The notes beneath the pieces are model-generated. The model was given only the letters and a program-made list of their open reading frames with translations, had not been told where the DNA came from and did not search any database. Made by a program: the position numbers and the translations under genes. A stretch of 47,637 nt of DNA from an uncultured Erysipelotrichaceae bacterium (lineage in GTDB: Bacteria; Bacillota_I; Bacilli_A; RF39; UBA660), in contig CACZPQ010000098.1 in the NCBI GenBank assembly GCA_902783185.1, forward strand, positions 1-47,637. Reading direction: 5' to 3'. Positions 1 through 47,637 of this stretch are shown here, piece after piece. The first letter of the stretch is position 1. Each line of letters begins with the position of its first letter.

Positions 1-363
1 TCTTCGTGGACAGGAAAAGTAGGACTATTTTATCCAAGTGATTATTTATATGCAACAAGTGGAGGAAACGCAACAAATAGGCAAACATGTTTAGGATTAG
101 GAATGTATACGGACTGGAGTAATTCGTCATATGCAAACTGTAAGGATAACGATTGGTTAAAACCAGCAAGCGGATATACATGGTCCTTGTCGCCTCGTGC
201 TAGCTCGTCTTACGCTGCACATGTGTTCCTTGTCATTAGCACTGGTAACGTCAACGACTACGATGCCAACGGTGCCCGCGGGGTTCGCCCAGTAGTCTTC
301 CTTAAATCTTCAATCTCCATCACCGGAGGTGATGGATCATCGACGAATCCATACATTATATGA
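1..363 (+). CDS. 3' end of a secreted/surface protein (5'-truncated by the window edge) with a C-terminal lectin-like 'GxRP' module
   Basis: Frame 1 is open from base 1 (SSWTGKVGLFYPSDYLYATSGG...) and ends at TGA 361-363. The C-terminus (...YTWSLSPR...GARGVRPVVFLK...GGDGSSTNPYII) parallels the C-terminal modules of ORFs 7443..8717 (FRPIIVF...GSGTSTDPWII) and 22527..23438 (GLRPEIIL). Confidence 0.6.
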   Translation, partial: SSWTGKVGLFYPSDYLYATSGGNATNRQTCLGLGMYTDWSNSSYANCKDNDWLKPASGYTWSLSPRASSSYAAHVFLVISTGNVNDYDANGARGVRPVVFLKSSISITGGDGSSTNPYII

Positions 364-5413: not shown

Positions 5414-5839
5414 ATGGATAAATTTAATATAAGAAAAATAGAAGGATATACAATTATGTCTAATTACCATTTACGAGATCAGAATTTATCACATGCTGCA
5501 AGAGGTTTATTATCCTTTATGTTATCACTACCAGATAATTGGGATTATTCATTTTCTGGTTTGGTAACAATCAGTAAAGAGGGTAAGGCAGCAATAAGAA
5601 CTATGATAAATGAATTAAAGATGGCAAAATACATTAAAATTAATCGTTATAGGAATGAAAAAGGATATTTTCAATACAATTATGATGTTTTTGAAATACC
5701 CTTTGATATGGACTTAAAAATGTATAATCATCCAACACCCGATTATCGGACTACCGATCATCGGACGTCCGAAAATCAGCAACAAATAAATACTAATAAA
5801 CAAATAGATAAAAAAGACATTTACTTTTTCATATTTTAA
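5414..5839 (+). CDS. helix-turn-helix (HTH_36/DnaD-like N-terminal) replication-organiser-like protein
   Basis: The motif MSNYHLRDQNLSHAARGLLSFMLSLPDNWDYSFSGLVTISKEGKAAIRTMINELKMAKYI matches the pattern typical of phage/ICE replication-initiator N-domains. RBS aaaggag. Confidence 0.6.
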   Translation: MDKFNIRKIEGYTIMSNYHLRDQNLSHAARGLLSFMLSLPDNWDYSFSGLVTISKEGKAAIRTMINELKMAKYIKINRYRNEKGYFQYNYDVFEIPFDMDLKMYNHPTPDYRTTDHRTSENQQQINTNKQIDKKDIYFFIF

Positions 5840-7442: not shown

Positions 7443-8717
7443 ATGAAAAGATATTTTAAAAGAATTGTTACAAGATTTATTATTATAAGTATTTTATTCT
7501 TGATTTGGATAACAAAAGTAGATGCAACATCTATTTCTAATGTTAATATTGGCGATTATTTTAGTTATACTCCACAAGCTTCAAATTATATTCCTGATCA
7601 TTCTTTGACAGGACATAATGATTCACCATCCTTTGTTCAGAATCCGATAGATGCTTCAGAATTAACAAGGTGGAGAATAATTAAAATTAATACTGATGGA
7701 ACTGTTGAAGCTATCTCTGAAAATATTTCTAGCGAATATGTTTATTTAAGAGGAATTACGGGTTATAAGAATTTATCTGGTATTTTGAATACAATAGCGA
7801 GTTTATACGAAACAACTGGAATTACAGTTGAATCAAGGTGTTTTGGTTATGATGGTCAAACGGAATATATAACTGATGATTCTTATTTAGTGCGATTTAC
7901 TTCTCCGGGTTCATCGACTTCTGAATATACTTCTATTGAAGATGAAACAAAAGGATTAGGTGATTTAAAATATATAAATGATGTTAATCTGGTAAATGAT
8001 TCGCTTAACTCTTTAGTTGCTTACACATTAAGTGGTAGCGAAAATGATTATTGGACTGCCTCAAGATTTCTAGGAGGAGTTTCTAACGATTTGTGGAAAT
8101 ATTATGGTGTATCTATTAGTGGAAGTATGGTATCTTTATCAACTAATAGAAATATTATATATGGATTTATTGGAAGTTCATATACTCATTTTTTAGAATA
8201 TCATCATTTTAGACCAATTATTGTTTTTAATTCTAATTTAGAACTTGAAGGTAGTGGAACATCTACTGATCCATGGATAATTATTCCTAAAGTAAAGGTA
8301 ACATTTGATACAAATGGTGGTTCTTTAATTTCAACCCAAACAATTACAAAAGGTGAAAAAGCAACAAGACCATTAAATAATCCAACTAAAGATGGGTATA
8401 AATTTGATGATTGGTATACAAATGATGCTTACGAAACAAAATTTGATTTTTCAAATTCAACAATAATTAGTGACACTACAATTTATGCTAAATTTATTAA
8501 AAATACATCAAATAGTGGTAACAATAATTTAGGTAATGATAATAATAATAGTGATAATGAAATTTCAATTAATAATAATACAAATACTACTAGTGTTAAT
8601 GATTCTGAAATTGTTCCAAAAACTGGAGATAATATAATTGTTTACTTTATAATACTTGGATTAAGTTTAATTATTCTTATATACATATCATATTATTTTA
8701 AAAGAAAATCATATTAA
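7443..8717 (+). CDS. sortase-anchored surface protein (lectin-like GxRP module + Flg_new/Listeria-Bacteroides repeat)
   Basis: Signal peptide, then YWTASRF...FRPIIVF...GSGTSTDPWII. A VTFDTNGG...DGYKFDDWYT...TIYAKF repeat follows, then an Asn-rich linker and a C-terminal VPKTGD + TM + KRKS sorting signal. Confidence 0.75.
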   Translation: MKRYFKRIVTRFIIISILFLIWITKVDATSISNVNIGDYFSYTPQASNYIPDHSLTGHNDSPSFVQNPIDASELTRWRIIKINTDGTVEAISENISSEYVYLRGITGYKNLSGILNTIASLYETTGITVESRCFGYDGQTEYITDDSYLVRFTSPGSSTSEYTSIEDETKGLGDLKYINDVNLVNDSLNSLVAYTLSGSENDYWTASRFLGGVSNDLWKYYGVSISGSMVSLSTNRNIIYGFIGSSYTHFLEYHHFRPIIVFNSNLELEGSGTSTDPWIIIPKVKVTFDTNGGSLISTQTITKGEKATRPLNNPTKDGYKFDDWYTNDAYETKFDFSNSTIISDTTIYAKFIKNTSNSGNNNLGNDNNNSDNEISINNNTNTTSVNDSEIVPKTGDNIIVYFIILGLSLIILIYISYYFKRKSY

Positions 8718-13311: not shown

Positions 13312-14469
13312 ATGAGTTGTAAGAGAATTAAAGTTAGAAAAGGAGTTGGAGTATATGATATTGTTATTGAATTAGGATATGATATACATGGAAAAAGAAA
13401 AAGAATTAGAAGAAGATTTTGTGGATCAATGGCTGAAGCTAAAAAAGAAGAAGCACAATTAAAACAAAAATATTATCATATTGGTGAAACAGTAAATTTA
13501 GTGAACTTTACTTTTGAAGAATATTCTGCATTTTTTTTGGAAAAATATTGTGATAGATATATTGAAAAAATAACAAAAAAAGATTATATACATATGTTAA
13601 AAAGAATAAACTTAATAATAGGTAATAAAAAATTAAAAAAAATTGATTCCTTAATATTAAACGAATTGTATGAAACATTAAAAATAGGAGTAGATGGAAA
13701 AACGATATCAAATAAATCGGTATTGCATTATTATGAGCTAATTAACAAAATGTTTAATCAAGCAAAAAAATGGAAATTTGTTGATCGCAATCCAAATATT
13801 GATGCAGAAAGACCAATTGTAATAAAAAAACAAAGAAATATTATTTCTTTTGAGGATTTAAAAAAATTAATTAAATGTGTAGAAAAAGAATCAATAAAAT
13901 ATAGAACAATATTATTATTAGATATAGTCACAGGATTAAGACGAGGAGAAATAGCAGCTTTAAGGTGGTCTTGGATTGATTGGGACAATAAAACTATAAA
14001 TATAAAAGCTTCTTTGAAGGTAATTGATGGTGAAGTTGATGAAGAAAGACCAAAAACAAATGCTGCTATTAGACAAGTTTATATTAGTGATGTAATTATT
14101 GCTTTATTAAAAGAATATAAAGAATGGCAAAACAATTATATTAATACCTTAGGTGAAAAATGGTGTGGAACTGATAGAATATTTACTGATAAATATGGAA
14201 AACATATATATCCAGGGACACCATATAGAATTTTAAAAAAAATTATAAAAAAATATGAATTAAATGATATGACATTTCATGATATAAGACATGTATATGC
14301 AACTTATTTGAATTCAAGAGGTGTTGATATCAAATCTATAAGTGAATTATTAGGTCATTCTAATACAAATATTACATTAGATGTTTATACACATGCTTAT
14401 GATGAAAGAAAAATTGAATGTGCAAATATTTTTGAAAATCTAATATCTGAATCTATTGAAGATAATTAA
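13312..14469 (+). CDS. int: tyrosine site-specific integrase
   Basis: Catalytic motifs GLRRGEIAALRW (Arg), HDIRHVYATY (H-x-x-R) and LGHSNTNITLDVYTH (His...Tyr), with an N-terminal SAM-like domain. Confidence 0.9.
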   Translation: MSCKRIKVRKGVGVYDIVIELGYDIHGKRKRIRRRFCGSMAEAKKEEAQLKQKYYHIGETVNLVNFTFEEYSAFFLEKYCDRYIEKITKKDYIHMLKRINLIIGNKKLKKIDSLILNELYETLKIGVDGKTISNKSVLHYYELINKMFNQAKKWKFVDRNPNIDAERPIVIKKQRNIISFEDLKKLIKCVEKESIKYRTILLLDIVTGLRRGEIAALRWSWIDWDNKTINIKASLKVIDGEVDEERPKTNAAIRQVYISDVIIALLKEYKEWQNNYINTLGEKWCGTDRIFTDKYGKHIYPGTPYRILKKIIKKYELNDMTFHDIRHVYATYLNSRGVDIKSISELLGHSNTNITLDVYTHAYDERKIECANIFENLISESIEDN

Positions 14470-14514: not shown

Positions 14515-14598
14515 TAAATTTATAACAAAATTCAAATTATTAATACAAAATAAAAAAAGACAAAAACACGGAAAAAGTAAATGTCTTTTTTATCAATT

Positions 14599-14675
14599 TG
14601 GTAGCGGAGGAGGGACTCGAACCCCCAACATTTCGGGTATGAACCGAACTATCTAGCCAGTTGATATACCCCGCC
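14599..14675 (-). tRNA. complete 77-nt tRNA with anticodon CAU (Met, or Ile2 if lysidinylated), CCA encoded, carried inside the element
   Basis: The reverse complement folds as GGCGGGG-TA-TATC-AACTGGCTA-GATA-G-TTCGG-TTCATAC-CCGAA-ATGTT-GGGGG-TTCGAGT-CCCTC-CTCCGCT-A-CCA. The D stem is unusually AU-rich. Confidence 0.8.
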
Positions 14676-22441: not shown

Positions 22442-22470
22442 GTCTTTTTTTTATTTTTTATTAAAGTTAC

Positions 22471-22560
22471 ATCTTTTTTAAATTTATTAATTATAGTATA
22501 ATAATTATAAGAAAGTAGAAGATAGTATGAAGAATTTGAAATATTTATTTATAATAGGAT
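22471..22560 (+). repeat. promoter/5'UTR/signal-peptide cassette, copy 1
   Basis: atcttttttaaatt...atagtataataattataagaaagtagaagatagtatgaagaat... is near-identical to 23448-23540. Confidence 0.7.
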
Positions 22561-23438
22561 TATTATTACCATTTTGTGTTTATGCCAAAGGATATGAAAT
22601 AGTATCAGGTGATTTAGATACCGTTGGTTCAATAGTAAAAATAGATTCAGAAGAATTTTATGTAATTGGAAAAGAAGATGATACTCACATAAAATTATTT
22701 GCTAAGTACAATTTAGCTATTGGCTCAGGATTTGACACTTACACTTATAGACAAAGTCCCTTGACAGAACCGCAAAAAGATTCAAACAATGATTTATATT
22801 ATAACGGGGTTTTAAAATTTTCTGAAAATGAATATTGGAAAGATGAAAATGGTAATATTTTAGATAAATATAATAAATCTGAAGGAGATTTTACATATGT
22901 ATATGATGAAAATTCTAATTATTATAATCATTTGAATAAATATGTTGAATACTTGAACAGTAATGGTGTGTGTACTACGGGAAGGTTAATAGATTATAAA
23001 GATTTACATTCTCTTGGTTGTGTTGATAATTGTAGAAGTTGTTTAATGAGTGGAATGGTATATGGGTGTTATTATGCACCAGAATGGGTAACCAATACAT
23101 GTTACTATACCGGGGATGCTGATTATGAACAGAATCATGAAGTTGTAGGTGTGTTTGGAGGATATTCATGGACGTCAAATATTTTATATAATACCTATTA
23201 TGGATTGAGACCAGAAATTATATTAAATTTGAATTGTCCTCAAAAAGAAACAAATGAAGAAGAACAACAAACTAATGAACCAATAAATGAAGTAAAAGAA
23301 GAATCTAATAGTGAAGTAGTATATGAAAATCCACCAACAGGTGCATTTGTATCAATAATTGCATTAATAATACTAATTGTTAGTTCAATACTTATAATTA
23401 TATATTTAAAAAAGAAATCAGTAATAAAGAAGATATAA
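22527..23438 (+). CDS. sortase-anchored surface protein with a lectin-like GxRP module
   Basis: Signal peptide, a Cys-rich region, then ...YYGLRPEIILNL. An acidic linker follows, then NPPTGAF + TM + KKKS. Confidence 0.7.
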   Translation: MKNLKYLFIIGLLLPFCVYAKGYEIVSGDLDTVGSIVKIDSEEFYVIGKEDDTHIKLFAKYNLAIGSGFDTYTYRQSPLTEPQKDSNNDLYYNGVLKFSENEYWKDENGNILDKYNKSEGDFTYVYDENSNYYNHLNKYVEYLNSNGVCTTGRLIDYKDLHSLGCVDNCRSCLMSGMVYGCYYAPEWVTNTCYYTGDADYEQNHEVVGVFGGYSWTSNILYNTYYGLRPEIILNLNCPQKETNEEEQQTNEPINEVKEESNSEVVYENPPTGAFVSIIALIILIVSSILIIIYLKKKSVIKKI

Positions 23439-23447
23439 ATTAATTTA

Positions 23448-23540
23448 TATCTTTTTTAAATTAAATAAATATAGTATAATAATTATAAGAAAGTAGAAGG
23501 ATAGTATGAAGAATATGAAATATATTTATTTATCAATAAT
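23448..23540 (+). repeat. promoter/5'UTR/signal-peptide cassette, copy 2
   Basis: See 22471-22560. Confidence 0.7.
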
Positions 23541-26430
23541 TGGATTATTATTTTTAGTATTAATACCATTTAGTGTACAAGCAAAAGATATTGAAGTAAC
23601 TAATGTTGAAGTACTAGAAAAAAATCATTATGTAAGTGAAGTAAATAGTCCAAGTATAAATGAAGATAAAATAGACTTTAATTTAAAATTTGAAGATTAT
23701 GAGCAATATATAACATATAAAATAACAATAAATAACAATTCATATTATGATTATACATATGAAATAAATAAAAAAGATGAAAGTATAATTAAATATGAAA
23801 TATTAGATGAAGAAAATAAAATAAACTATAGTAGTACAAAAGATATAGTATTAAAAGTATGGTATAAAGAAGAAATAAATGAAGAATTATATAATGACAA
23901 TAAATATAATATAGAAGATAAAATAGAATTAAAGTTTAGTGGACCAGAAATAACATCAGTAGATACAATAGAGGAACTAAAAAAAGCAATAGAGAACCCA
24001 GAAACAGGAGCATTTTTCTCAATAATAATAGCATTAATAGTATTAATAATAAGTATAATAGTATATAAAAAAGCAAAGTCTTTATCAAAATTTAAACATT
24101 TTATATGGTTAATATTATTAGTACCAGTAATAGTATTAGCAAGTAGTAATACAATTAGTATATACTTAAACTTTAATATTGAACTTGATAAGCCAACTAG
24201 AGCAATACTAATGTATAGTGGTAATGTTAATTCAAGAATGATGCAATTAGCTGGTGGTAATGACAAAATCGTAGCTATTAAAAGAAGCTTTGAAAAAAAT
24301 GATAATGCAGTTGAAGTTCAAAATATGGAAAACTATAGTGATCCATCTAGTTATTCAGTAACACCATCAGAATATAAAATATATATGTGGTATGATGAAA
24401 CTCAAAAAACAATATATTATTATTCTGATGCAGTAAGAGTATTATATCATCCAAGTGGATCAGGTTTTTATAATAATTTAACTAATTTACAAGAAATAGA
24501 TGATATAAAAACAGATATATTATATTATGCATCATATATGTTTAATGGAGCATCATCTGGTTTAGAGAGTGTATCATTAGATTTATCTAATTGGAATATG
24601 AAAAATGTTGCTTCAGTTAATGAATTATTAGCTCATTTTGGAAAAGATACCAAAAATATTGAAATAACTGCTAATGACTGGGAATTTAATAACATTAAAG
24701 ATAGAAATGGAAGTTATATTTTTGCATATTTAGGGGAAGCATCAGAAATTGGTAAAGTAGATAAAATAACAATAAATGCTAATAATTGGAAAATAGGTGG
24801 TAATTGTTATAATCCTGAATTTTACGAATATAATGGTGTTATATATTATTCCTCGCAAGGAGCTATACATGATGTATTTTATTATATAGGAAGTAATGCA
24901 TATAATGTCAAAATAAGTGCTAAAAATTGGAATCTAGAAAATCAAACGTCATTGTATGAATTGTTTTATGGTACAGGAAATGATACTTATCAAAATTTAG
25001 AACTTGATGTATCTGGACTTAATGCTCCAGAGGCTTTAACAATACAAAAAGCTTTTATTAGTACTGCTCAAGATCCTTATTATGGAAGTGAAGAAAGAAA
25101 TTTAAATGTCAAAATTAATGTAAGTAATTGGAATTTACCAAAGGTTGTTGATTATAATATGGCATTTATGCAAGTAGCCGAATATGGTATAAATGAATTA
25201 GAATTACTAGGTTTAGATACTTGGGATGTATCTAATGCTAAAAATATGAATGCAATGTTTTATTATTTAGGATTGGATGCTAAAAAAGTAAAATTTAGCG
25301 ATATAAATAACTGGGATGTATCAAATGTTGAAGACATGGCTCAATTATTTAATGATGCGTTTAAGGAATGTGAGGAATTAGAATTAAATCTTTCAAATTG
25401 GGATGTTTCGAATGTTAAAAATATTGGTGGTGCTTTTGGCTATGTTGGTAGTAATAGTAGAAACGTTAATATTAATGTTTCTAATTGGAATTTATCCGGT
25501 ATAGAGTCTTGGAATGGTAATTTATTTAATAATGTTGGTGAAAATGCTGAAAATTTAACTTTTAAAGCCGATAATCTTAAATTTAATACTACAACATCGA
25601 TAAGCGGGATATTCTCATCGCTTGCATATAATGCTAACAATGCTGATATTAGTATTTCAAATTTGAAAGCAAGCAATAATCTACAGTCTATTTTAGGTGG
25701 TCTTGGTGCAAATGCCAAAAGTATTGATTTAAATATATCAAATTGGGATTTAACAAATGTAACTGTCAATAATATCATTGGATCACCACTCACTAATACA
25801 CTTAATGTTAATATTAATATGTCTAATTGGAAAATAAATAGTAATACAAGAATTGATTCTCTATTTAGTTATCTTGAAGGATTAAATGTAGTCTTTAATC
25901 TTGATGCATCAAATTGGGATTTAGGTGATGCAACAAGTTTAAGTAAATTATTTAAAAGTACAGCACAAAAAGTCCATTCATTGAAACTTGATTTATCTGG
26001 ATGGGATACATCAAATATTACAGATATGTCAGAAATGTTTAATTATGCATTTAATAATAGATGGTTTACAGTTACTTATGATAGACCATATGCTCCACCT
26101 ACATATCATTATTATGAAGGTGATGTAGAACCAACAATTGAAATAATAGGTATAGATAAATGGGATGTATCAAATGTTACCACTATGGAATATATGTTTA
26201 GTAATTCATTCAAGTATTTTAAAAACTTAAAATTAGATTTAAGTTCATGGAATATTTCTAATTTAACTAATGCTAATTATATGTTTAGTTCCTTTGGACA
26301 ATACACAATAGGTGATAAAGGATTTGAATTAAATTTAAGTGGATGGAATATAAACGGTATTGCAAATAAAACAGATATTTTAAATAATATTGGTAATGGT
26401 TCATCACGTGCAAATGTTATTACAACATAA
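23506..26430 (+). CDS. large surface protein: N-terminal domain + internal NPETG sorting signal + second TM + DUF285/BspA-like repeat region
   Basis: Signal peptide, then NPETGAF-TM-KKAK at aa 164-191 and a second TM at aa 197-212. More than 15 repeats of the L(D/N)LSNW(D/N)(V/T)SNV.(N/D)M..MF type follow. Confidence 0.8.
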   Translation: MKNMKYIYLSIIGLLFLVLIPFSVQAKDIEVTNVEVLEKNHYVSEVNSPSINEDKIDFNLKFEDYEQYITYKITINNNSYYDYTYEINKKDESIIKYEILDEENKINYSSTKDIVLKVWYKEEINEELYNDNKYNIEDKIELKFSGPEITSVDTIEELKKAIENPETGAFFSIIIALIVLIISIIVYKKAKSLSKFKHFIWLILLVPVIVLASSNTISIYLNFNIELDKPTRAILMYSGNVNSRMMQLAGGNDKIVAIKRSFEKNDNAVEVQNMENYSDPSSYSVTPSEYKIYMWYDETQKTIYYYSDAVRVLYHPSGSGFYNNLTNLQEIDDIKTDILYYASYMFNGASSGLESVSLDLSNWNMKNVASVNELLAHFGKDTKNIEITANDWEFNNIKDRNGSYIFAYLGEASEIGKVDKITINANNWKIGGNCYNPEFYEYNGVIYYSSQGAIHDVFYYIGSNAYNVKISAKNWNLENQTSLYELFYGTGNDTYQNLELDVSGLNAPEALTIQKAFISTAQDPYYGSEERNLNVKINVSNWNLPKVVDYNMAFMQVAEYGINELELLGLDTWDVSNAKNMNAMFYYLGLDAKKVKFSDINNWDVSNVEDMAQLFNDAFKECEELELNLSNWDVSNVKNIGGAFGYVGSNSRNVNINVSNWNLSGIESWNGNLFNNVGENAENLTFKADNLKFNTTTSISGIFSSLAYNANNADISISNLKASNNLQSILGGLGANAKSIDLNISNWDLTNVTVNNIIGSPLTNTLNVNINMSNWKINSNTRIDSLFSYLEGLNVVFNLDASNWDLGDATSLSKLFKSTAQKVHSLKLDLSGWDTSNITDMSEMFNYAFNNRWFTVTYDRPYAPPTYHYYEGDVEPTIEIIGIDKWDVSNVTTMEYMFSNSFKYFKNLKLDLSSWNISNLTNANYMFSSFGQYTIGDKGFELNLSGWNINGIANKTDILNNIGNGSSRANVITT
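24540..26400 (+). repeat. array of degenerate ~25-30-aa DUF285 / 26-residue surface-protein repeats (coding)
   Basis: The motif NW(N/D)(V/L/T)SNV...M(F) recurs throughout the translation. Confidence 0.7.
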
Positions 26431-26473: not shown

Positions 26474-26493
26474 TTACTTGTATTTCGAATGTA

Positions 26494-26690
26494 TTTAAGA
26501 GGAGTATTAAAATAATTATTCAAAGAGAATTAGTGGTTGGTGGAAACTAATAATAATGTTTTAAGAAGGTTGCTTAAAGAGAAATAATCGAATATAACTC
26601 GTTACGTTATAAAGAGTATGATATAAATCATAAATTAAGGTGGTACCGCGGCTTTAGTCGTCCTTTAGTTTATGATTTTTTTATTGAGGT
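26494..26690 (+). promoter_or_regulatory. T-box riboswitch leader with a Val (GUU) specifier
   Basis: The Stem I lower helix is tttaag (26494-99) / cttaaa (26573-78). AGTA is at 26503-06, the AGAGA bulge at 26524-28 and the distal loop ggttggtggaa. The specifier loop is ...GAA-g-GTT-g (GTT at 26569-71). The T-box motif aattaaGGTGGTACCGCGg is at 26631-52. The terminator arms are aaatcataaa.. and ..tttatgattt, followed by a T-run. Confidence 0.85.
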
Positions 26691-26696
26691 GAAATT

Positions 26697-27398
26697 ATGC
26701 AAAAAGAATTAGAAATGTTTGAAAAATTTATTAATGATTATGATTTAACTATACCACAGTTAAAAGGAAAGAAAGAACATACATATAGAGTAGTTGGATA
26801 TGCTAAAGAAATTGCTAAATCTTTATTGTTATCTAACGAAGATATTAATTTAGCAGGTATATGTGCTTTATTTCATGATTTAGGTAGATTTCCACAATAC
26901 ACTCAGTATCATACATTTTATGATGATGATTCTATAGATCATGGTGATAAAAGTTACGAAATATTAAAAGAATTAAATTATAATAATGAAATAGTCTTAA
27001 AAGCAGTTAAATATCATAATAAATATAGAGTTGATGATAGTTTAAGTGAAAGAGAATTATTGTTTGCTAATATTACAAGAGATGCTGATAAAATTGATAT
27101 AATGTTAAAACAACTTGGAGATTCCTATAAAGAAGATTATAATATTTCTAATGATATAATGAATTTCTTTTATGAACAAAAACTAATTAATAATGAAACA
27201 ATAAAAAATAAAACTGATGGAAAATTAAGAACGTTAACTTTTATTTTTGATATTAATTATAAAAAGAGTTTTGAAATAATTAAGGAATCAAATATAATTG
27301 ATAAATATATTAATTTAATATATAATGCAACAAATGATGAAAAAATATTTGAAATAAGAGATATTTTAAATGAAAGGATTGATAATTATGTTAGATAG
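26697..27398 (+). CDS. HD-domain phosphohydrolase family protein
   Basis: The motif HTYRVVGYAKEIA...CALFHDLGRF...DKID is an HD-superfamily signature. Confidence 0.7.
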   Translation: MQKELEMFEKFINDYDLTIPQLKGKKEHTYRVVGYAKEIAKSLLLSNEDINLAGICALFHDLGRFPQYTQYHTFYDDDSIDHGDKSYEILKELNYNNEIVLKAVKYHNKYRVDDSLSERELLFANITRDADKIDIMLKQLGDSYKEDYNISNDIMNFFYEQKLINNETIKNKTDGKLRTLTFIFDINYKKSFEIIKESNIIDKYINLIYNATNDEKIFEIRDILNERIDNYVR

Positions 27399-29907
27399 CA
27401 AATATGATCATAAGCAAGTTGAAAAAAATAAATATAATACATGGAAAGAAAATGGATATTTTAATGCAGGAGATAAAAGTAAAAATCCATATTGTATTGT
27501 AATACCACCACCTAATGTTACTGGAAAACTACATATTGGACATGCTTATAACGTAGCAATACAAGATGCTATTATTAGATATAAAAGAATGCAAGGATTT
27601 GATACACTTTGGTTACCAGGAATGGATCATGCTGCAATTGCAACTGAAGCTAAAGTAGTTAAAAGGCTAAAAGACAAGGGCATTAATAAGTATGAATATG
27701 GTAGAGAAAAGTTTTTAGAGGCTTGTTGGGATTGGACTAAAGAATATGGTGGTACAATTCGTGATCAATGGGCTGCTATGGGAATATCAGTTGATTATAC
27801 TAGAGAAAGATTTACTCTTGATGAAGGCTTAAATAAAGCTGTTACTAAAGTATTTGTTGACTATTATAATAAAGGTTTAATATATCGTGGTGAAAAGATT
27901 ATTAACTGGGATCCAGTTGCTAAAACTGCTTTATCTAATGAAGAAGTTATTTATTCTGAAGAAAAGAGTGCTTTTTATCACTTAAAATATGTTTTGGAAG
28001 ATAGTGATGAATATTTAGATGTTGCAACAACTAGACCAGAAACGCTATTTGGTGATACAGCTGTTGCAGTTAATAAAGATGATGAAAGATATAAAAAATA
28101 TATTGGTAAAAACGTTATATTACCAATTATGAATAAAGCTATTCCTGTTATTGCTGATGAACATGCTGACATGGAAAAAGGAACAGGTGTAGTTAAAATA
28201 ACACCAGCACATGATCCTAACGATTTTGAAGTAGGTAATAGACATAATCTTGAAAGAGTATGTATCATGAACGATGATGCAACATTAAATGAAAATGTGC
28301 CAGAAAAATATCAAGGAATGACAAGAGAGGATGCTAGAGAAGAAGTTTTAAAAGATTTAAAAGAACTTGGACTTCTTTTAGATGTAGAACCACTTGTTCA
28401 TGAGGTTGGTCATTCTGAACGTACTCATGTAATGGTTGAACCAATGATTAAAGAGCAATGGTTTGTTAAAATGGATGAACTAGCTAGTAATTTATTAAAT
28501 ACTCAAAATAAAAAAGATGAAAAGGTAAATTTTGTTCCTGATAGATTTGAAAATCTATTAAAATCTTGGATGACTTCGTGTCATGATTGGTGTATTTCAA
28601 GACAACTATGGTGGGGACATAGAATTCCAGCATGGTATAAAGGTGATGAAGTATATGTTGGACTTGAAGCTCCAAAAGAGTCTGGTTGGGTTCAAGATGA
28701 AGATGTTTTAGACACATGGTTTTCATCTGCATTATGGCCATTTTCAACATTAGGTTGGCCAGATAACACTGAAGATTTAGAAAGATATTATCCAAATGAT
28801 TGTTTAGTTACTGCTTATGATATTATTTTCTTCTGGGTTGCAAGAATGATTTTCCAATCAGAAGGATTAAATAATATTAGACCATTTAAGGATTGTATTA
28901 TTCATGGTTTAATTCGTGATAAAAATGGTAGAAAAATGTCTAAATCACTAGGTAATGGTGTAGATCCATTTGATATGATTGAAAAATATGGTGTTGATGC
29001 GTTAAGATATTATTTAAATACTGATGTTTCATTTGGTACTGACCTTAGATTTGATGAAACAAAAATGTCATCAACTTGGAATTATATTAATAAAATATGG
29101 AATGCATCAAGATTTGTTTTAATGAATATTGAAGGATTAAAAGAATATACTTTTGATAATTTAACTGATGAAGATAAATGGATTCTTACTAAATATGAAA
29201 ATATAGTTAAATCAAGTATTAATCATATGGATAAATATGAATTTAATTTATTTGGTACTGAAACATATAGTTTTATTTATGATGATTTTTGTTCAAATTA
29301 TATTGAATTTGCTAAATTTAATAGTGATTCTAATACTACAAAATCAGTTTTATGTTATGTTCTAACTGGCATATTAAAAATGTTACATCCATTTATGCCA
29401 TTTGTAACTGAAGAAATATATCAAATGTTACCAATTAAAGAAACTGCATCTATTATGATATCTAAATATCCAGAATATAACAAAGATTTTGTTTATAAGA
29501 ATGAAGAAAAAATAGTTGATGATAAAATAGAATTTATTAAAACTTATAGAAATATTAAGACAGAGAATAATATTCCAAAAGATGTACAAGTGTTAATTAA
29601 TACTAATGATCAAATAATTATAAAAATGTTAAAGATTGAAAATATTATAACAAATCCAATTAATATTAAATCTTATAATGTAAAAGCAAATAATTATAAA
29701 GCAACTATTTTCTTTGAAAAACAAGAATCTATTGCAGATAAACAAATAAAAGAAACTCAAATTAAATTATTACAAGATTCTATTGCAAGACGTGAAAAAC
29801 TATTATCTAATGAACATTATGTTAATAAAGCACCAAAAAATATTGTAGATATGGATAGACAAAAATTGGAAGAAGAAAAGAAAAAATTAGAGGAATTATT
29901 AAAATAG
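27388..29907 (+). CDS. valS: valyl-tRNA synthetase
   Basis: PPPNVTGKLHIGHA (HIGH), KMSKSLGN (KMSKS) and a C-terminal coiled coil. The start was set at MLDSKYDHKQVE behind RBS aaagga and overlaps the HD gene by 11 nt. Confidence 0.95.
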   Translation: MLDSKYDHKQVEKNKYNTWKENGYFNAGDKSKNPYCIVIPPPNVTGKLHIGHAYNVAIQDAIIRYKRMQGFDTLWLPGMDHAAIATEAKVVKRLKDKGINKYEYGREKFLEACWDWTKEYGGTIRDQWAAMGISVDYTRERFTLDEGLNKAVTKVFVDYYNKGLIYRGEKIINWDPVAKTALSNEEVIYSEEKSAFYHLKYVLEDSDEYLDVATTRPETLFGDTAVAVNKDDERYKKYIGKNVILPIMNKAIPVIADEHADMEKGTGVVKITPAHDPNDFEVGNRHNLERVCIMNDDATLNENVPEKYQGMTREDAREEVLKDLKELGLLLDVEPLVHEVGHSERTHVMVEPMIKEQWFVKMDELASNLLNTQNKKDEKVNFVPDRFENLLKSWMTSCHDWCISRQLWWGHRIPAWYKGDEVYVGLEAPKESGWVQDEDVLDTWFSSALWPFSTLGWPDNTEDLERYYPNDCLVTAYDIIFFWVARMIFQSEGLNNIRPFKDCIIHGLIRDKNGRKMSKSLGNGVDPFDMIEKYGVDALRYYLNTDVSFGTDLRFDETKMSSTWNYINKIWNASRFVLMNIEGLKEYTFDNLTDEDKWILTKYENIVKSSINHMDKYEFNLFGTETYSFIYDDFCSNYIEFAKFNSDSNTTKSVLCYVLTGILKMLHPFMPFVTEEIYQMLPIKETASIMISKYPEYNKDFVYKNEEKIVDDKIEFIKTYRNIKTENNIPKDVQVLINTNDQIIIKMLKIENIITNPINIKSYNVKANNYKATIFFEKQESIADKQIKETQIKLLQDSIARREKLLSNEHYVNKAPKNIVDMDRQKLEEEKKKLEELLK

Positions 29908-36242: not shown

Positions 36243-37913
36243 ATGAAGAATATTAAGTATTTATTAGCATTTGTATTATTATTTATTTGTAGTATAAGTG
36301 TTGTTAGTGCATCTAATAAATTAAATAAAATATCAATGGATATATTTGTAGATGATGAAGGCAATGCTCATATTACTGAAGTATGGAATGCAAAATTAAG
36401 TGAAGGAACTGAAGGATATCATCCTTACTATAATTTAGGTAATTCTTATATATCTGATTTTAGTGTTACAGATGATAGTGGAACAACTTATACATATAAT
36501 GATAGTTGGAATATAAAATCATCATTTGATACTAAAAAATATACTAATGGTATATATAAAGATGGTAATGAAGTAGATCTTTGTTGGGGTATATCAAAGT
36601 ATGGATCAAGAGTATATACTTTAAAATATACTATTAATAACTTTATATATAATACAAGTGATGGAACTCAAATATTATTTTGGCAATTAATACCATATGA
36701 TATGAAACCAAAACCAAATGATGTATATATAAAAATATATGGTAGTAAAGCATTTGAAAGTACTTTGGATGTATGGGGTTATGGTAATTATGGTGGAACT
36801 GCATATGTATATGATGGATATATTGAAATGCAACCACCAAAAAATGGATTAAAATCAGATGATTACATGACAATATTAGTTAAATTTCCTGAGGGATATT
36901 TTAATACAACTAATAAAATAAATAAGAGTTGGGATGATGTATTTGCTGGAGCTGAAGATGGTTCAACAAAATATGATAAAGATAAAGAAGATTTTTTGGA
37001 AATGATTTGGGGGATACTTAGTGTCTTAATTTGGCCAATAATAATAATATTAATTGCCATTTTTGGTTCTAAATATAGTGGTAGCAACAAAATTAAGAAT
37101 AAAGTATATCCTAAAAAAGATGTATTACCATTTAGAGATTTACCATTTAAAGATAATTTTGGTAGAGCATATCTTATTTCTGATGAATATAAATTATTAA
37201 ATAAGAAAACTGATTATTTAGGTTCATTATTACTTAAATGGATTAAAGAAGATTTAGTTAGTGTAACTACTGAAGAAAAAGGAATATTTAAAAATAAAGA
37301 AACTAAGATAGAATTTAAGAAAAATCCTACAGATCCTCAAGAATTAAAGATGTATAACATGATGAAAGAAGCGGCTAAAGATAATATCTTAGAAACTAAT
37401 GAATTTAAAAAATATTGTTCTAAGCATTATTCTACAGTATTGGGTTGGTTTGATTCTACATTAGCTTATGAATATGGATTATTAAGTAAAGAAACTAAAT
37501 ATATAGGACCAGTAATGGTTAAAAATAAACAAGTAATGGGTGCTACTAATGAATTAAATGAAAAAGCATCCCAAATGGCAGGATTAAAGAAATTCTTTAA
37601 AGAATTTACATCAATGCATGAAAAAACAGCAATTGAGGTTAAAATGTGGAGAGAATATTTAATCTATGCTCAAATATTTGGTATGGCTAAAGAAGTAGCT
37701 AAAGAATTTAAAGATTTATATCCAGATGTTATTAGTGATGATATGTATAATGATGTTATATTAATAAATACATTCTCATACACTGGAGTAAGTGCAGCAT
37801 CAACTGCAAAAGCTAGAGCTGAAAGCTATTCATCAGGTGGTGGAGGATTCTCATCTGGTGGCGGAGGAGGAGGTTCCTTCGGTGGTGGAGGCGGCGGAGG
37901 CGGCTTCCGTTAA
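36243..37913 (+). CDS. DUF2207-family membrane protein with a C-terminal poly-Gly tail
   Basis: Signal peptide, an extracytoplasmic beta-rich domain, a TM helix (ILSVLIWPIIIILIAIFG) and a cytoplasmic domain. The protein ends SSGGGGFSSGGGGGGSFGGGGGGGGFR. Confidence 0.7.
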   Translation: MKNIKYLLAFVLLFICSISVVSASNKLNKISMDIFVDDEGNAHITEVWNAKLSEGTEGYHPYYNLGNSYISDFSVTDDSGTTYTYNDSWNIKSSFDTKKYTNGIYKDGNEVDLCWGISKYGSRVYTLKYTINNFIYNTSDGTQILFWQLIPYDMKPKPNDVYIKIYGSKAFESTLDVWGYGNYGGTAYVYDGYIEMQPPKNGLKSDDYMTILVKFPEGYFNTTNKINKSWDDVFAGAEDGSTKYDKDKEDFLEMIWGILSVLIWPIIIILIAIFGSKYSGSNKIKNKVYPKKDVLPFRDLPFKDNFGRAYLISDEYKLLNKKTDYLGSLLLKWIKEDLVSVTTEEKGIFKNKETKIEFKKNPTDPQELKMYNMMKEAAKDNILETNEFKKYCSKHYSTVLGWFDSTLAYEYGLLSKETKYIGPVMVKNKQVMGATNELNEKASQMAGLKKFFKEFTSMHEKTAIEVKMWREYLIYAQIFGMAKEVAKEFKDLYPDVISDDMYNDVILINTFSYTGVSAASTAKARAESYSSGGGGFSSGGGGGGSFGGGGGGGGFR

Positions 37914-37950: not shown

Positions 37951-37960
37951 GGGGGGGGGG
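37951..37960 (+). repeat. G10 homopolymer tract in an intergenic promoter region
   Basis: Read directly. It is the only G or C run longer than 6 in the window. Confidence 0.9.
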
Positions 37961-37994
37961 TCAAAATATGCTATCATTATACTAGGTGGTAGCC

Positions 37995-38972
37995 ATGAAA
38001 CAATTTAATAAAAATAAAGAATTAAAAAAATTAAGAATAAAACAAAATAAAAATACTTATATAAAAAAAATAAGTATAGTTATTTCATGTTTTATATTAT
38101 TAATAGGAATAATCATGTTTACATTTGCTAAGTTTGAGAGTAATAGTTCAGAATATACATTAATAAATGGAAAAGTAAAATATTTAGGTGGAGATATAAA
38201 TATAGTATCATATAATTATGATGGAAGGAATAACAGTGAACCACCAAGTAAAGAAGATGGATACATACTAACGAATATAAATTGTGAAAATGCTCAAGGA
38301 GAATGGGATGATTTAAATTGGGAATTAAATATATCAAATTTAACAAGTAAAGTTAAATGTAATTTAGAATTTGATAAAACAAGTAATTATCAAATAATAA
38401 AATATAATACAAATGGAGGATATTTAGAAGAACAATATAAAAAAGGAGTAGTAGGAGAACAATTAGGAGAATTACCAACACCAATAAAAGTAGGATATAC
38501 ATTTGATGGATGGTATAAGGAATCAACATTTACAAATAAAGTAGAAGAAACAACTATAATAGATCAAACAATAACAAATTTATATGCAAAATATACAGTT
38601 GGTGGTGAAAATATAAATCGTTTAATTTTGGCTGATGATATTGCTAGTGCATATTATTCGGGGTTAACTTTTTATGATTCTGATTTTTTTGATTATGTAA
38701 GTGGTAGTCAAAGAACAGCATATAGTGGAGCAACAAATATAACATTAAAAGCTAAGTTTAGCGGAGAAGTTGTTGTATGGTTTGGAAAGCAAAGTAATGG
38801 AACTTTATCTATAAATGGAGTGTCACAAACGCTTGTAAGTAGTAAAGTTGTTACATTACAAATAAATAGTGGTGATACAGTAAATGTTAATTTTCCTATA
38901 TATTATAATGCACTATTAATGTTTTATAATTGTGATCGAAGTACATGGCAGGGTGGCAATATTGGAGGATAG
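37995..38972 (+). CDS. membrane-anchored surface protein with a Flg_new (Listeria-Bacteroides) repeat
   Basis: N-terminal signal anchor ISIVISCFILLIGIIMFTFA, then IIKYNTNGG...VGYTFDGWYKE...NLYAKY. The start was set at ATG 37995 behind RBS aggtgg. Confidence 0.7.
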   Translation: MKQFNKNKELKKLRIKQNKNTYIKKISIVISCFILLIGIIMFTFAKFESNSSEYTLINGKVKYLGGDINIVSYNYDGRNNSEPPSKEDGYILTNINCENAQGEWDDLNWELNISNLTSKVKCNLEFDKTSNYQIIKYNTNGGYLEEQYKKGVVGEQLGELPTPIKVGYTFDGWYKESTFTNKVEETTIIDQTITNLYAKYTVGGENINRLILADDIASAYYSGLTFYDSDFFDYVSGSQRTAYSGATNITLKAKFSGEVVVWFGKQSNGTLSINGVSQTLVSSKVVTLQINSGDTVNVNFPIYYNALLMFYNCDRSTWQGGNIGG

Positions 38973-39038: not shown

Positions 39039-39066
39039 AAAAAAGTGTTATATTAACACTTTTTTT
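39039..39066. terminator. bidirectional terminator
   Basis: Stem agtgtta/taacact with a 3-nt loop, an A-run on the left and a T-run on the right. Confidence 0.55.
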
Positions 39067-39745
39067 CTTTTATAAATGCTCTTAATATTTTAGTTAATGC
39101 TCTTTTTTCAATTCTTGATACATAACTTCTTGATATTTTTAATTCTTTAGCAATATCTTTTTGAGTCATTTCTTTAGTATTATTTAAACCATATCTTTTT
39201 ATTATTATTTCTTTTTCTCTCTTATTTAGTTTATCTATATATTTATTTAATAAATCAACATTTTCTTTTAGATATACTTTATCTTCTAAGGTATTATCAG
39301 TATCTTCAATAACATCTATTAGACTAATAGCATTACCATCTTTATCATAACCAATAGTATCATCTAAAGAAACATTATTTTTATATTTCTTTGTTGTCCT
39401 AAAAAACATCAACACTTCGTTTTCTATACAGCGACTCACATATGTTCCAACTTTAACATTTCTTTCATTACTATATGAATCTATTCCTTTAATTAAGCCA
39501 ATAGTACCAATACCTATTAAATCATCTTGATCGACATTGCTGTTTTCAAACTTTTTAACTATATGAGCAACTAATCTTAAATTATGTTCTATTAAAGAAT
39601 TTCTTGCATTTTTATCACCATTTAGCATTTTATTTACTAGAGTTTGTTCTTCTTCATATGATAATGGATCTAAAAATACTGTATTTGAATAACTACCAGT
39701 TAAAAAGAATGTATTTTTAATAATTTCAATTAACCAACTTAACAT
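39053..39745 (-). CDS. sigK: sporulation-type sigma factor, SigK-like (with a pro-sequence)
   Basis: LIEHNLRLVAHIVKKFENS, DLIGIGTIGLIKGIDSY and CIENEVLMFFR are near-identical to SigK signatures. The N-terminal FFLTGSYSNTVFLDPLS aligns with the pro-SigK cleavage region. Confidence 0.7.
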   Translation of the reverse strand: MLSWLIEIIKNTFFLTGSYSNTVFLDPLSYEEEQTLVNKMLNGDKNARNSLIEHNLRLVAHIVKKFENSNVDQDDLIGIGTIGLIKGIDSYSNERNVKVGTYVSRCIENEVLMFFRTTKKYKNNVSLDDTIGYDKDGNAISLIDVIEDTDNTLEDKVYLKENVDLLNKYIDKLNKREKEIIIKRYGLNNTKEMTQKDIAKELKISRSYVSRIEKRALTKILRAFIKEKKC

Positions 39746-39813
39746 TTAATCACCTTAATTAATTTTATTTTATTTATTGTAATTTCATGATAAAATATAT
39801 ATGGTGATATGAA

Positions 39814-40362
39814 ATGAAAAGGGTAAGAATATTAGTATTAATATTTGCATTAATAATGCTGTGTGGTTGTGATAATAAATTTCAAGGAACTTGGTGTAAA
39901 TATAATGATGTAGCAACTACGTTAGTTATTTTAACTAATGATATTAGTGATAATCAAATAAAAGAAATTACAAATTATATTAATAAAATTGAAAACTTAA
40001 AATCATATGATATTATTGATAAAATTGAAGATGCATCAAAGATGATTACAATTTATTATAAAAATGATGATAATATTTTAGAATATGAAAAAATGATTAA
40101 AACATTTACTGGTATTGATTCAGTTAAATCTACTAAGGTAAATGAAGTAGTAGATAAATTGGTTGTTAAAAAAGAAGATTATACATTAGGTAGATCTTTA
40201 AATAATTTAACTGCTAATGAAATGAGTGGTAAATATAAAATTGAAAATGATGAATTATTACTTGATGATGGAGTTAAATTTTATTATAAAAATAAATATT
40301 TATGTTATGACGAATATTGTAATAGTGTTTTAACTAAATCTAAAACTAATGACTGTGGATAG
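39814..40362 (+). CDS. putative lipoprotein
   Basis: Signal peptide ending with the lipobox-like sequence LIMLCGC. Confidence 0.55.
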   Translation: MKRVRILVLIFALIMLCGCDNKFQGTWCKYNDVATTLVILTNDISDNQIKEITNYINKIENLKSYDIIDKIEDASKMITIYYKNDDNILEYEKMIKTFTGIDSVKSTKVNEVVDKLVVKKEDYTLGRSLNNLTANEMSGKYKIENDELLLDDGVKFYYKNKYLCYDEYCNSVLTKSKTNDCG

Positions 40363-40374
40363 GAAGTGATAAGT

Positions 40375-40899
40375 ATGAATAATTTTATTCCAGATATATA
40401 TGCTAAGAATATATTTAATATTGATTATAAAAAATTAAAAAAAGATGGAATAAAATGTATATTATTTGATCTTGATAATACAATAACTCCATTAACTGAA
40501 AATGAACCATCTAAAGATGTTAAAGAGTTATTTGCATATATTGATGATTTAAATATAAAAATAATTATTCTATCCAATAGTAAAAAGAAAAGAGTAGCTC
40601 CATTTAAAGAAATCTTAAATGTAGATTCTGCTTATATGTCTATGAAACCATTAAAAAGAAAATTTAAAAAGGTTTTAGGAATGTTTAACTTAGATTTTAG
40701 TGAAGCAGCACTAATAGGTGATCAGGTATTAACTGATGTTTTAGGTGCTAATAGATGTGGTATAACATCAATACTTGTTGATCCCCTAACTGATGAAGAT
40801 AAATTTTTAACAAAAATAAATAGAAAGTTTGAAAGAATAATATTAAATAAACTAAAGAAGAAAGGTATATATGAAAAAGGAAAGTACTATCATAATTAA
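40375..40899 (+). CDS. yqeG: YqeG-family HAD phosphatase
   Basis: The ILFDLDNTI (DxD) and IGDQVLTDVLGANRCGITSILVDPL motifs are present. Confidence 0.8.
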   Translation: MNNFIPDIYAKNIFNIDYKKLKKDGIKCILFDLDNTITPLTENEPSKDVKELFAYIDDLNIKIIILSNSKKKRVAPFKEILNVDSAYMSMKPLKRKFKKVLGMFNLDFSEAALIGDQVLTDVLGANRCGITSILVDPLTDEDKFLTKINRKFERIILNKLKKKGIYEKGKYYHN

Positions 40900-41860
40900 A
40901 AAATGTTTAGGCTGTGGGTCTGTAATGCAAAACGAGGATAATTCAAAAGTGGGTTATGTTCCATATGAACATATTGAAGAAGCAGATTATTGTCAAAGAT
41001 GTTTTAAATTAAAAAACTATAATGAAAAAGTAATGAATGAAGTATTAGTTGATGAAAATGAAGTAATTGATATTGTTAATAAAAGCAATAAATATGCTTT
41101 TTTTCTAGTAGATTTTTTAAATATATCTAATGAAACAATTAATACTTACAAAAAGATTAGTATAGATAAAACATTAGTTATTTCAAAGAGTGATTTAATA
41201 TTTAGAGATATTAAATTAGATAAGGTTAAAGAAAATTTAAAAAATATATATAATCTTGATGATAATATAATATTTTTAAGTTCAAAAAAGAATTATAATA
41301 TAAATACTATATTTGCTATATTAAAGAAAAATAATAAAAAGAGTAGTTATATATTAGGCTATACAAATGCTGGTAAATCAACTTTAATTAATAGTTTAAA
41401 AAATGATAATCAAATATTAGAATCATCAGTACCTAATACAACACTAGATTTTATTAATATAAAAATAAATGATTTTGAAATAATTGATACTCCTGGTTTT
41501 AATTTGAAAAATACATTTTATAAGGATAAAGAATATGAATTAATCAAAAAGATGAATCCAGTATATTTTGTTAGTCCAATGAATTATCAAGTTAAAGATA
41601 ATCAAATATTTTTAATCGAGGATAGATTATTTTTAAAAGGGTTTGATAATAATAATATTACTTTTTATATTAGTAATTTAATTAGAATTAAAAAAATATA
41701 TAAAGATGAAGATATTATTTATAAGGAAATAGATATTGATGATAATTCAGATGTTGTTATATCTTCACTTGGATTTATTAATGTTAAAAAGAAATGTAAA
41801 TTATTAGTTAATGAAGAATTATTTGATTTAATTAATATTAGAAAATCAATATTTAATTAG
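40871..41860 (+). CDS. yqeH: ribosome-biogenesis GTPase YqeH (circularly permuted)
   Basis: N-terminal Zn ribbon CLGCG...CQRCF. The motif order is SKSD (G4), then GYTNAGKSTLIN (G1), then DTPG (G3). Confidence 0.8.
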   Translation: MKKESTIIIKKCLGCGSVMQNEDNSKVGYVPYEHIEEADYCQRCFKLKNYNEKVMNEVLVDENEVIDIVNKSNKYAFFLVDFLNISNETINTYKKISIDKTLVISKSDLIFRDIKLDKVKENLKNIYNLDDNIIFLSSKKNYNINTIFAILKKNNKKSSYILGYTNAGKSTLINSLKNDNQILESSVPNTTLDFINIKINDFEIIDTPGFNLKNTFYKDKEYELIKKMNPVYFVSPMNYQVKDNQIFLIEDRLFLKGFDNNNITFYISNLIRIKKIYKDEDIIYKEIDIDDNSDVVISSLGFINVKKKCKLLVNEELFDLINIRKSIFN

Positions 41861-41882
41861 TTATTATTAAAGGGTGGTAGTA

Positions 41883-43658: not shown

Positions 43659-43682
43659 AAATAGAATAGTTATATTACTATT

Positions 43683-44210: not shown

Positions 44211-44310
44211 TAATATCACCATAATATATAATAACATTTAATAATAATAATTTACACTATAACTTGAAATTTTTATTAAATTTACATATAATTTATATAG
44301 GAGAATAAAT

Positions 44311-45444: not shown

Positions 45445-45524
45445 ATAAGTTAATAAAGTCTATTTAAAAAATAGATTTTTTTAATTTTTCATGGTATATT
45501 AATAATAGTAGGGTGATGTGTGAT

Positions 45525-47507: not shown

Positions 47508-47572
47508 AGAAAATGTACAAATTTCAATTTAAAAAAAGGAAATTAAGGATTTACCTAGAATAATAATAGTAG

Positions 47573-47604
47573 AGGGACTAATTAATTTTAATTAGTCCCT
47601 TTTA
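47573..47604 (+). terminator. Rho-independent terminator
   Basis: 11-bp stem agggactaatt/aattagtccct with a 6-nt loop and a T-run. Confidence 0.7.
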
Positions 47605-47637
47605 TATTTATAAAAAGAAAGGAGGTGTAAAAATGAA

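Follow-up and report, generated by a model that had tools for sequence, protein, structure and literature searches.

In a very AT-rich genome, how does a single gene come to end in a short, G+C-rich stretch that is poor in adenine? The question is raised by 47,637 nt of DNA from an uncultured Erysipelotrichaceae bacterium (GCA_902783185.1, contig CACZPQ010000098.1, positions 1-47,637, forward strand), the whole of which is called the window hereafter, and in which an open reading frame (ORF) cut by the left edge carries such a patch shortly before its stop codon. A first-pass annotation, made from the letters of the window, proposed that the patch is a variable region (VR) of a diversity-generating retroelement (DGR), that is, a target sequence rewritten from the adenine-mutagenized copy of a template repeat (TR) by a dedicated reverse transcriptase (RT). 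We find that the DGR footprint is present both within the protein family to which the gene belongs and between alleles of the window locus, and it is highly probable that window positions ~190-291 are a VR written by a DGR. This reading is drawn from the homologous position of the VRs of relatives, the behaviour of adenine across alleles, the codon pattern of the variation, the divergent VR of an orthologous locus, and the lectin-type fold of the protein. As to whether the system is still at work here, we incline, with no great firmness, to the view that this VR copy is a live remote target of a cassette located elsewhere in the chromosome.

A compositional anomaly confined to the end of one gene

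The gene and the block in question are as follows.

1 to 363, plus strand: 3' end of a DGR-target-type gene, comprising the last 120 codons and the TGA stop; the ORF is truncated by the left window edge.
181 to 303, plus strand: VR-homologous block, codons W-S-L-S-P ... R-P-V-V-F-L, G+C-rich and A-poor, recognized from its composition, the G+C content of its third codon positions (GC3) and its relatives.

Positions 181-300 contain 18 A, 37 C, 31 G and 34 T, which corresponds to 56.7% G+C, 15.0% A and 28.3% T, compared with 24.9% G+C and 40.7% A in the whole window. When all 120-nt frames of the window were considered, a G+C content of at least 50% or an adenine content of at most 15% was reached at two places only, the patch and a spot at 37.7-37.9 kb. 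The latter was ruled out as a TR or a second VR, as it is the Gly-rich tail of an unrelated ORF and does not align to the patch.

The anomaly extends to codon choice. A codon usage count gave a GC3 of 58.5% and 7% adenine at third positions (A3) in the 41 codons of 181-303, compared with 10.1% and 43%, respectively, in the 12,366 codons of 26 window ORFs, and codons used in the patch are scarce in these ORFs (CGC, 1% of Arg; GTC, 2% of Val; TCG, 2% of Ser; GCC, 4% of Ala). Because the shift in codon usage is seen at synonymous sites, amino-acid composition provides no explanation for the patch. Half of its adenines (9 of 18) fall within 247-270 (AAC GTC AAC GAC TAC GAT GCC AAC), and the patch as a whole lies in the last ~60 codons of the ORF ending at 363. 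The compositional anomaly is therefore real and beyond chance, and the counts and GC3 bear out the adenine-poor, G+C-rich patch, the rare A-free codons and the adenine cluster at 247-270 that had been noted in the first-pass annotation.

The same contrast recurs in the family. Among 39 detected instances of the homologous block, which include several copies of one gene from different assemblies, 36 show a G+C content of 0.41-0.58 and an adenine content of 0.11-0.26 (A at most 0.23 in 35), whereas the same genes upstream of the block have 0.30-0.39 G+C and 0.34-0.46 A. The block is eroded in the other 3 instances, one of them on contig L015 with 0.28 G+C (labels of this type denote metagenome contigs or loci throughout).

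A sharp change in composition inside one gene might also arise by horizontal transfer or gene conversion from a donor of higher G+C content, with no retroelement involved, and the mosaic structure of the gene body between strains, described below, is in line with such an event. We consider this origin extremely improbable. The target gene upstream of the patch does not share the composition of the patch (0.17-0.43 G+C in 60-nt windows), unlike the uniform composition of the whole upstream gene that had been named beforehand as one of the signs of simple acquisition. Moreover, the boundaries of the patch are the TR/VR homology boundaries of relatives, the patch recurs in the 36 instances mentioned above, and a G+C-rich donor predicts neither an adenine that is never conserved nor variation obeying an NNY rule (N, any base; Y, pyrimidine), both of which are documented in the following sections.

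Relatives with complete DGR cassettes

Gut and rumen metagenomes yielded more than 5,400 homologues of the target protein. Alignment of the 13 nearest shows conserved flanks (..CKNNDW.. and ..PVVFLKSS.ITGG.G..NPY) on either side of a segment, W-T-L-S-P-x-A-x-S-S-x-A-x-x-V-F-x-V-...-G-V-R-P, that varies at discrete columns, with the residues at these columns being those reachable from AAY codons. A family set of 80 loci from metagenome contigs was scanned for RT motifs and by phmmer. DGR-type RTs (IGNMTSQ...YMDD, Pfam RVT_1) adjoin family members in L034, L092 and L059, with a bAvd-like ORF as the neighbour of the RT in L034. In their TR/VR pairs, 19 of 23 and 20 of 21 mismatches are located at TR adenines. 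The VRs of the relatives span the (A/T/S)-P codons to ...R/S-P-A, which is equivalent to window ~190-291, and transfer of their boundaries defines two features in the window.

190 to 291, plus strand: putative VR core, presumably the part that the TR supplies, from TCG CCT (S-P) to CGC CCA G; boundaries transferred from the TR/VR pairs of L034, L092, L066 and L107.
274 to 291, plus strand: G+C-rich 3' end of the VR (GCCCGCGGGGTTCGCCCAG), where an element resembling the initiation of mutagenic homology (IMH) would be expected, read from the sequence.

TR-VR homology in relatives ends in an equivalent G+C-rich ...CGCCCAG, ...CCCCCGCC or ...CCGGCGC, and by analogy we infer an IMH function for 274-291.

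Two positive controls demonstrate activity of this RT clade. Between L107 and L109, TR and RT are the same, whereas 22 VR positions differ, every one of them a TR adenine; similarly, one identical RT was found in six samples with six different VRs. Cassettes of this clade can also serve targets on other contigs. L088, on another contig of the L092 sample, matches the L092 TR with 17 of 19 mismatches at adenines and with an identical 3' flank. In L102, L103 and L105 the TR directly follows the stop codon of the RT and the target is absent from the contig (a bAvd match is recorded for L103-L106, none for L102), and a TR is missing from 10 of the 11 target loci for which 3 kb or more is available to each side. 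In addition, TR-like sequences for which no RT was found on the locus occur as a partial match of 46 nt in L040 and as a TR-like sequence in L080.

Two further observations concern these cassettes. In a human-gut relative (L107:7698-11288, also L108), genes for ParA/CbiA-like and T2SSE-type ATPases and two unnamed ORFs come after the cassette, a set that resembles Tad/type-IV-pilus assembly genes and fits the N_methyl signal found on some family members. The motif TATGGTTACGGCTATA and its variants occur 25-45 nt 3' of the TRs of this RT clade (L034:7195-7215, L066:2140-2160, L092:1775-1790, L107) and may be part of a DGR RNA structure for priming.

Variation among alleles in the absence of a template

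A test that does not require the TR itself can be made across alleles. In the seven closest alleles (window, L111, L097, L098, L019, L020 and L021), 44 of the 102 core positions are invariant, only one of which is an A; the flanks contain 72 such positions, and 28 of these are A (Fisher p=3.8e-6). Where positions vary, the four bases occur almost equally often (G 110, T 110, A 94, C 92).

The codon pattern leads in the same direction. Among 13 alleles with a VR of the 41-codon class, 16 codons are hypervariable, with a mean entropy of 1.78, 1.49 and 0.76 bits at positions 1, 2 and 3, and their third base is often a fixed C or T (in 13 of 13 alleles at two codons and in 12 of 13 at four more). 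The 12 scaffold codons show the opposite pattern, with 0.07, 0.00 and 1.13 bits. Randomized first and second positions combined with a fixed pyrimidine at the third are the signature of an AAY template, and ordinary selection gives no such pattern. Judged from the alleles, VR variation is restricted to the positions of adenines in a presumed template.

Diversifying selection on a ligand-binding loop, together with recombination among paralogues and with composition as a by-product of amino-acid preference, would be the conventional explanation for such variability, and it can draw on the number of paralogues and on the mosaic C-terminal half of the gene between strains. Selection on amino acids, however, cannot fix third-position pyrimidines while randomizing positions 1 and 2, and neither a rise in G+C at synonymous scaffold sites nor the removal of adenine alone from invariant positions would be expected from it. 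We therefore regard this explanation as very unlikely.

In the mechanism established for DGRs and presumed to apply here, a TR RNA would be copied by the RT together with bAvd, with template adenines being miscopied at random. The cDNA would then replace the VR, guided by the G+C-rich 3' end and the flank. As the TRs of this clade are richer in G+C than the genome and carry their adenines in AAY codons, the expected product is a G+C-rich, A-poor VR with ~16-17 NNY codons, which could allow ~10^19-10^20 protein variants without stop codons.

The target protein and its predicted fold

The entire gene is contained in L001 (7636-9201; 521 aa), whose overlap with the window shows 99.97% identity. 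L001-L005 were retrieved via the neighbouring 282-aa protein, and the contigs of the same organism obtained in this way are 99.8-99.97% identical overall. The 521-aa protein begins with an N-terminal helix of membrane type (residues 3-34), followed by a pilin/TasA-like beta-sandwich to about residue 200 and by a C-terminal region of ~300 residues that forms an enlarged C-type-lectin-like (DUF6273-like) domain. AlphaFold2 models reached predicted local distance difference test scores of 86.4 and 93.4. When the whole-protein model was compared with PDB folds, the N-terminal beta-sandwich governed the outcome and the lectin domain was not picked up, and for this reason the C-terminal domain was modelled separately, using the orthologue from L111 (P0012, 85% identical to the window-gene protein; 93.4).

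The top solved structure found by Foldseek for the C-terminal domain is the immunoglobulin A (IgA) peptidase of Thomasclavelia ramosa (9qa6; E=1.5e-9, 324 aligned columns, 18% identity). The N-terminal domain of this peptidase, of ~290 residues, has a C-type-lectin-like core and is about twice the usual size (PMC12237041), and from the aligned length we infer that the match to our model falls on this domain. The best matches among predicted viral structures (BFVD) are phage DUF6273 proteins (E=2e-7). Published accounts class DUF6273 as a C-type-lectin (CLec)-like domain of DGR targets, in which the VR is located C-terminally (PMC11792537, PMC10743442). The Pfam gathering threshold for DUF6273 (PF19789) was not reached by the window fragment (14.7 bits against a cut-off of 23.5; E=0.027), and the full-length protein (P0001) gave no Pfam match at E<=0.1; a precomputed PF19789 match is present on several homologues. 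The target protein is thus a relative of DUF6273 by fold and family links and no member by the Pfam rule.

The VR occupies the 3' end of the ORF, its core ending 70 nt before the stop codon, and in the modelled lectin-type fold it encodes the last strands and loops of the domain. The earlier placement of a DGR VR at the C-terminus of a lectin-like module is strongly supported by the VR position in relatives, the unconserved adenine, the NNY variation and the predicted fold.

At the other end of the protein, the beta-sandwich (L001:7636-8240, residues 1-200) has weak matches to archaeal pilins or bundling pili (6nav, 8tib, 7ueg and 7pnb), the best figures being E=0.006 by sequence for 6nav and E=6e-4 by fold for 7ueg. 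Some homologues bear the camelysin/TasA family mark (PF12389), and some family members a prepilin-type N_methyl signal. The pilin-like matches and the PF12389 homologues hint that the target protein could be a fibre subunit.

A live remote target or an orphan copy

Comparison of the window organism with its close relatives bears on whether the VR is still being rewritten. The organism has at least two G+C-rich VR loci, locus A (the window gene) and locus B (L097, L098 and L099), as well as AT-rich copies. Between strains, locus B has flanks that are 99% identical around a VR that is 65% identical, and the C-terminal half of its gene is mosaic. The orthologue of locus A in L111 is preceded, as in the window organism, by the gene for tyrosyl-tRNA synthetase (TyrRS), and the downstream DNA is 99% identical to the window from 39040 onwards. 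Divergence within this orthologue is by far the greatest in its VR, with 65-76% identity in 60-nt bins compared with ~96% for most of the gene. A divergent VR next to a flank of 99% identity indicates that the VR has been rewritten within ~1% genomic divergence and without erosion.

The AT-rich paralogues of the organism are located at L015:5738-7300 and L001:3-1400, in samples that hold it. These are the true AT-rich paralogues, on other contigs, and the two supposed copies within the window did not stand up to comparison: ORF 7443-8717 shares a 26-residue C-terminal motif only (BLASTP E=0.006), and ORF 22527-23438 has no significant similarity (E=0.77). In the L015 paralogue, which shares its sample with L001, the N-terminal part is near-identical in composition profile, the VR block has eroded to 28% G+C, and a hairpin of the kind described below is missing; the L001 paralogue has Listeria-Bacteroides-type repeats (recognized by eye) and an AT-rich, non-VR C-terminus.

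Several observations on the L111 contig (ENA ERZ914794, scaffold_2537) stand apart from its VR. The orthologue is followed directly, at L111:2131-2140, by DNA 99% identical to window 39040-47637, so that ~38.7 kb (window 364 to 39040), including the capsule genes and rpoB/rpoC, are skipped; this junction is either a rearrangement with a breakpoint at the gene end or a scaffolding error. In addition, a 17-nt tandem duplication at L111:1050-1100 (ATGGGTAGATGAAGACA twice) splits the orthologue into ORFs of 176 and 343 aa, which points either to a pseudogene in the strain concerned or to an error of assembly.

A number of results weigh against the explanation by a DGR. TR, Avd and RT all went undetected across the 47.6-kb window, the 8.8 kb upstream of it (L001) and a further ~35 kb on contigs attributed to the species (L015, L097-L099 and L111), and pattern scans of genome and viral contigs gave zero or chance matches only. 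All TRs recovered belong to the 39-codon VR class, none to the 41-codon class of the window. L111 alters two otherwise-scaffold codons (GCT to AAT and TTC to AAC), which a single shared TR does not predict, and the gene body is mosaic between strains, so that recombination among paralogues contributes to the variation. Finally, the four assemblies that reach the VR (window, L001, L002 and L003; L004 and L005 stop short) show no difference in it. As these assemblies are near-clonal, with 2-14 substitutions over 6-11 kb (2-7 between the window and each of the others), the identity of their VRs has little power against activity.

The searches behind these negatives were as follows. No RT was found among window ORFs of at least 80 aa by phmmer with two family-associated DGR RTs, and no second copy of the patch was found in the window by a 20-mer scan with up to 3 mismatches, a repeat search, relaxed self-BLAST or an in-frame scan for AAY-rich sequence; the earlier statement that TR-like repeat and RT are absent from the window agrees with all of these. 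The expectation that both would probably lie upstream fails for the 8.8 kb covered by L001, where SUF genes and the genes for DUF3800, a HAD hydrolase and TyrRS were found, together with a surface-protein paralogue truncated by the end of the contig. On its other side, the target gene has as neighbours the 282-aa protein, of no assigned family, and capsule genes (Wzz-kinase, CpsB). The A-free 20-mer GGTGCCCGCGGGGTTCGCCC had nine matches in the genome contig collection, all of them chance matches of 20-33 nt in genomes of 55-74% G+C. Viral contigs were scanned three times, twice with N-masked scaffold patterns and once with the 3' flank. A profile search recovered 1654 related RTs in public data, 0 of which could be assigned to the window organism. 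Twelve contig look-ups yielded no RT or TR of this organism, six RT/target look-ups gave other organisms or no new alleles, and a search for further alleles with the 120-aa fragment returned only 12 short, distant matches. The organism was encountered in rumen samples (e.g. ENA ERZ28614153/SAMEA5383927, ERZ1024285, ERZ27280305 and run ERR3224606), and the species DNA examined, ~90 kb, amounts to ~6-9% of a genome that we estimate at ~1-1.5 Mb.

The same material may be read as an orphan VR, written by a DGR whose cassette has since been lost, so that a frozen allele now undergoes ordinary evolution. This possibility deserves serious weight, even if we hold it to be the less probable. It accords with the empty ~90 kb, with the identical VR in four assemblies, and with the decay known in the family, of which the eroded VR of L015 and the TR-like sequences of L040 and L080 are examples. 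Against it, the window VR shows little erosion, with a GC3 of 58.5% on a background of 10%, compared with a decay to 28% G+C in the L015 paralogue; neither the IMH-like flank nor the hairpin is damaged; the VR at this locus is a different one in L111, the downstream DNA of which is 99% identical; and the ground covered is only the small fraction of the genome given above. The live remote target is the reading that we prefer.

The 3' flank and a hairpin past the VR

Two further features lie between the VR core and the stop codon.

292 to 311, plus strand: stretch directly 3' of the VR (TAGTCTTCCTTAAATCTTCA), a candidate target-recognition flank, noted for its conservation, including rare codons.
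316 to 336, plus strand: perfect 9-bp hairpin with a 3-nt loop (TCCATCACC GGA GGTGATGGA), 25 nt past the VR core, identified by folding.

The conserved part of the flank is its first 17 bases, 292-308 (TAGTCTTCCTTAAATC and the first base of the next codon). The form CCAGTAGTCTT(C/T)CTT(A/C)AATC is retained at synonymous sites in the window, L016-L021, L024-L026, L097 and L098, even though protein identity is 50-70% and the codons GTC, TTC and CTT are seldom used here.

For the hairpin, nine relatives that had been picked by eye because it is present showed 96% of cells paired and three pairs changed on both sides, with compensatory changes such as ATC..GAT to ATT..AAT and ACC..GGT to TCC..GGA. 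The fold z-score of 271-350 is only -0.83. As a general rule of the family the hairpin was ruled out, as it is missing from the proven cis targets L034 and L092 and from others; a role as a target-recognition element, based on these comparisons, is suggestive only. A consensus scan found no intrinsic terminator after the target gene.

Comparison with known systems

The closest parallel is provided by the targets of the Faecalibacterium prophages Lelie, CP11, Roos and Pioen and by 'tentaclin'-type targets, which share with the window gene a DUF6273-type domain, a C-terminal VR and an AAY-rich template logic (PMC11792537, PMC10743442). In contrast to the prophage targets, the window gene is chromosomal, has housekeeping neighbours (TyrRS and capsule genes) and no cassette nearby, and its product begins with a membrane helix and a pilin/TasA-like domain and has no tail-fibre module. 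With the T. ramosa IgA peptidase (9qa6) the likeness consists in the enlarged C-type-lectin-like N-terminal domain; the peptidase itself is a metallopeptidase with no reported DGR.

The DGR of Bordetella phage BPP-1 reportedly comprises the VR of Mtd, a TR, Avd, the reverse transcriptase bRT, and an IMH with a downstream hairpin, with TR and RT directly beside the target (Doulatov 2004, Guo 2011). The window gene resembles it in that the variation is adenine-specific and affects a CLec-type fold encoded by the 3' end of the target gene, and in a G+C-rich VR end with a short hairpin after it. It differs in that TR and RT are absent from the neighbourhood of the window gene, and in that the window hairpin has a 3-nt loop and is missing in two relatives with proven cis cassettes. 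In cellular DGRs (e.g. of Treponema and Legionella), one TR reportedly serves VRs at several or remote loci. The likeness here lies in the L092/L088 pair and in the standalone RT-TR cassettes, and the link in the window organism's own case would be by analogy.

DUF6273/CLec targets, remote targets and DGRs of gut Firmicutes have thus already been described, and our findings leave the current understanding of DGRs unchanged. Modest interest is added by the location in the chromosome, by an N-terminal domain of pilin/TasA-like type, by the large number of family members and by the link to the structure of an IgA peptidase. The DGR footprint was recognizable from composition alone in a very AT-rich genome, even with the cassette far away, and a TR-free test was gained, in which adenine is the sole base never conserved across alleles. 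The family is a large one of Bacilli surface proteins with hypermutated lectin-like tips, many of its genes far from any cassette, a point of relevance to the ways in which uncultured Bacilli of the rumen and gut alter the surfaces that serve in adhesion or recognition; DGR surveys confined to the vicinity of RT genes will miss most such targets. One might go further and imagine a phage-independent DGR network in rumen and gut Bacilli, in which standalone avd-RT-TR cassettes rewrite the lectin heads of dispersed paralogues, pilin-like fibres display the diversified adhesin and a covarying DNA hairpin marks competent targets, with the window gene as a live node; taken as a whole, this picture is speculative and we consider it rather unlikely.

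Other features of the window

The G+C-rich spot mentioned above belongs to a 556-aa membrane protein (ORF 36243-37913), whose Gly-rich tail (SSGGGGFSSGGGGGGSFGGGGGGGGFR; GGGG...) is encoded by 37800-37913. Shortly after it, a run of 10 G at 37951-37960, just 5' of ORF 37986-38972, could be a slippage-prone tract.

A tyrosine-recombinase-type ORF at 13312-14469, identified from motifs by eye, adjoins a tRNA-Met gene on the minus strand (14599-14675). Together with a 30-nt inverted repeat (5801-5830 and 14571-14600; 97% complementary), it brackets ~8.7 kb with helix-turn-helix regulators and an LPXTG surface protein, and the bracketed segment is probably an integrated element. Further on, a 58-nt direct repeat (22464-22521 and 23442-23499; 91% identical) is located 5' of two signal-peptide protein genes (22527-23438 and 23506-26430); its similarity extends into the first codons, which suggests a duplication of the region 5' of these genes. 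At 26488-26668, upstream of the ORFs at 26697-29907, a T-box leader was identified (Rfam RF00230, 107 bits).

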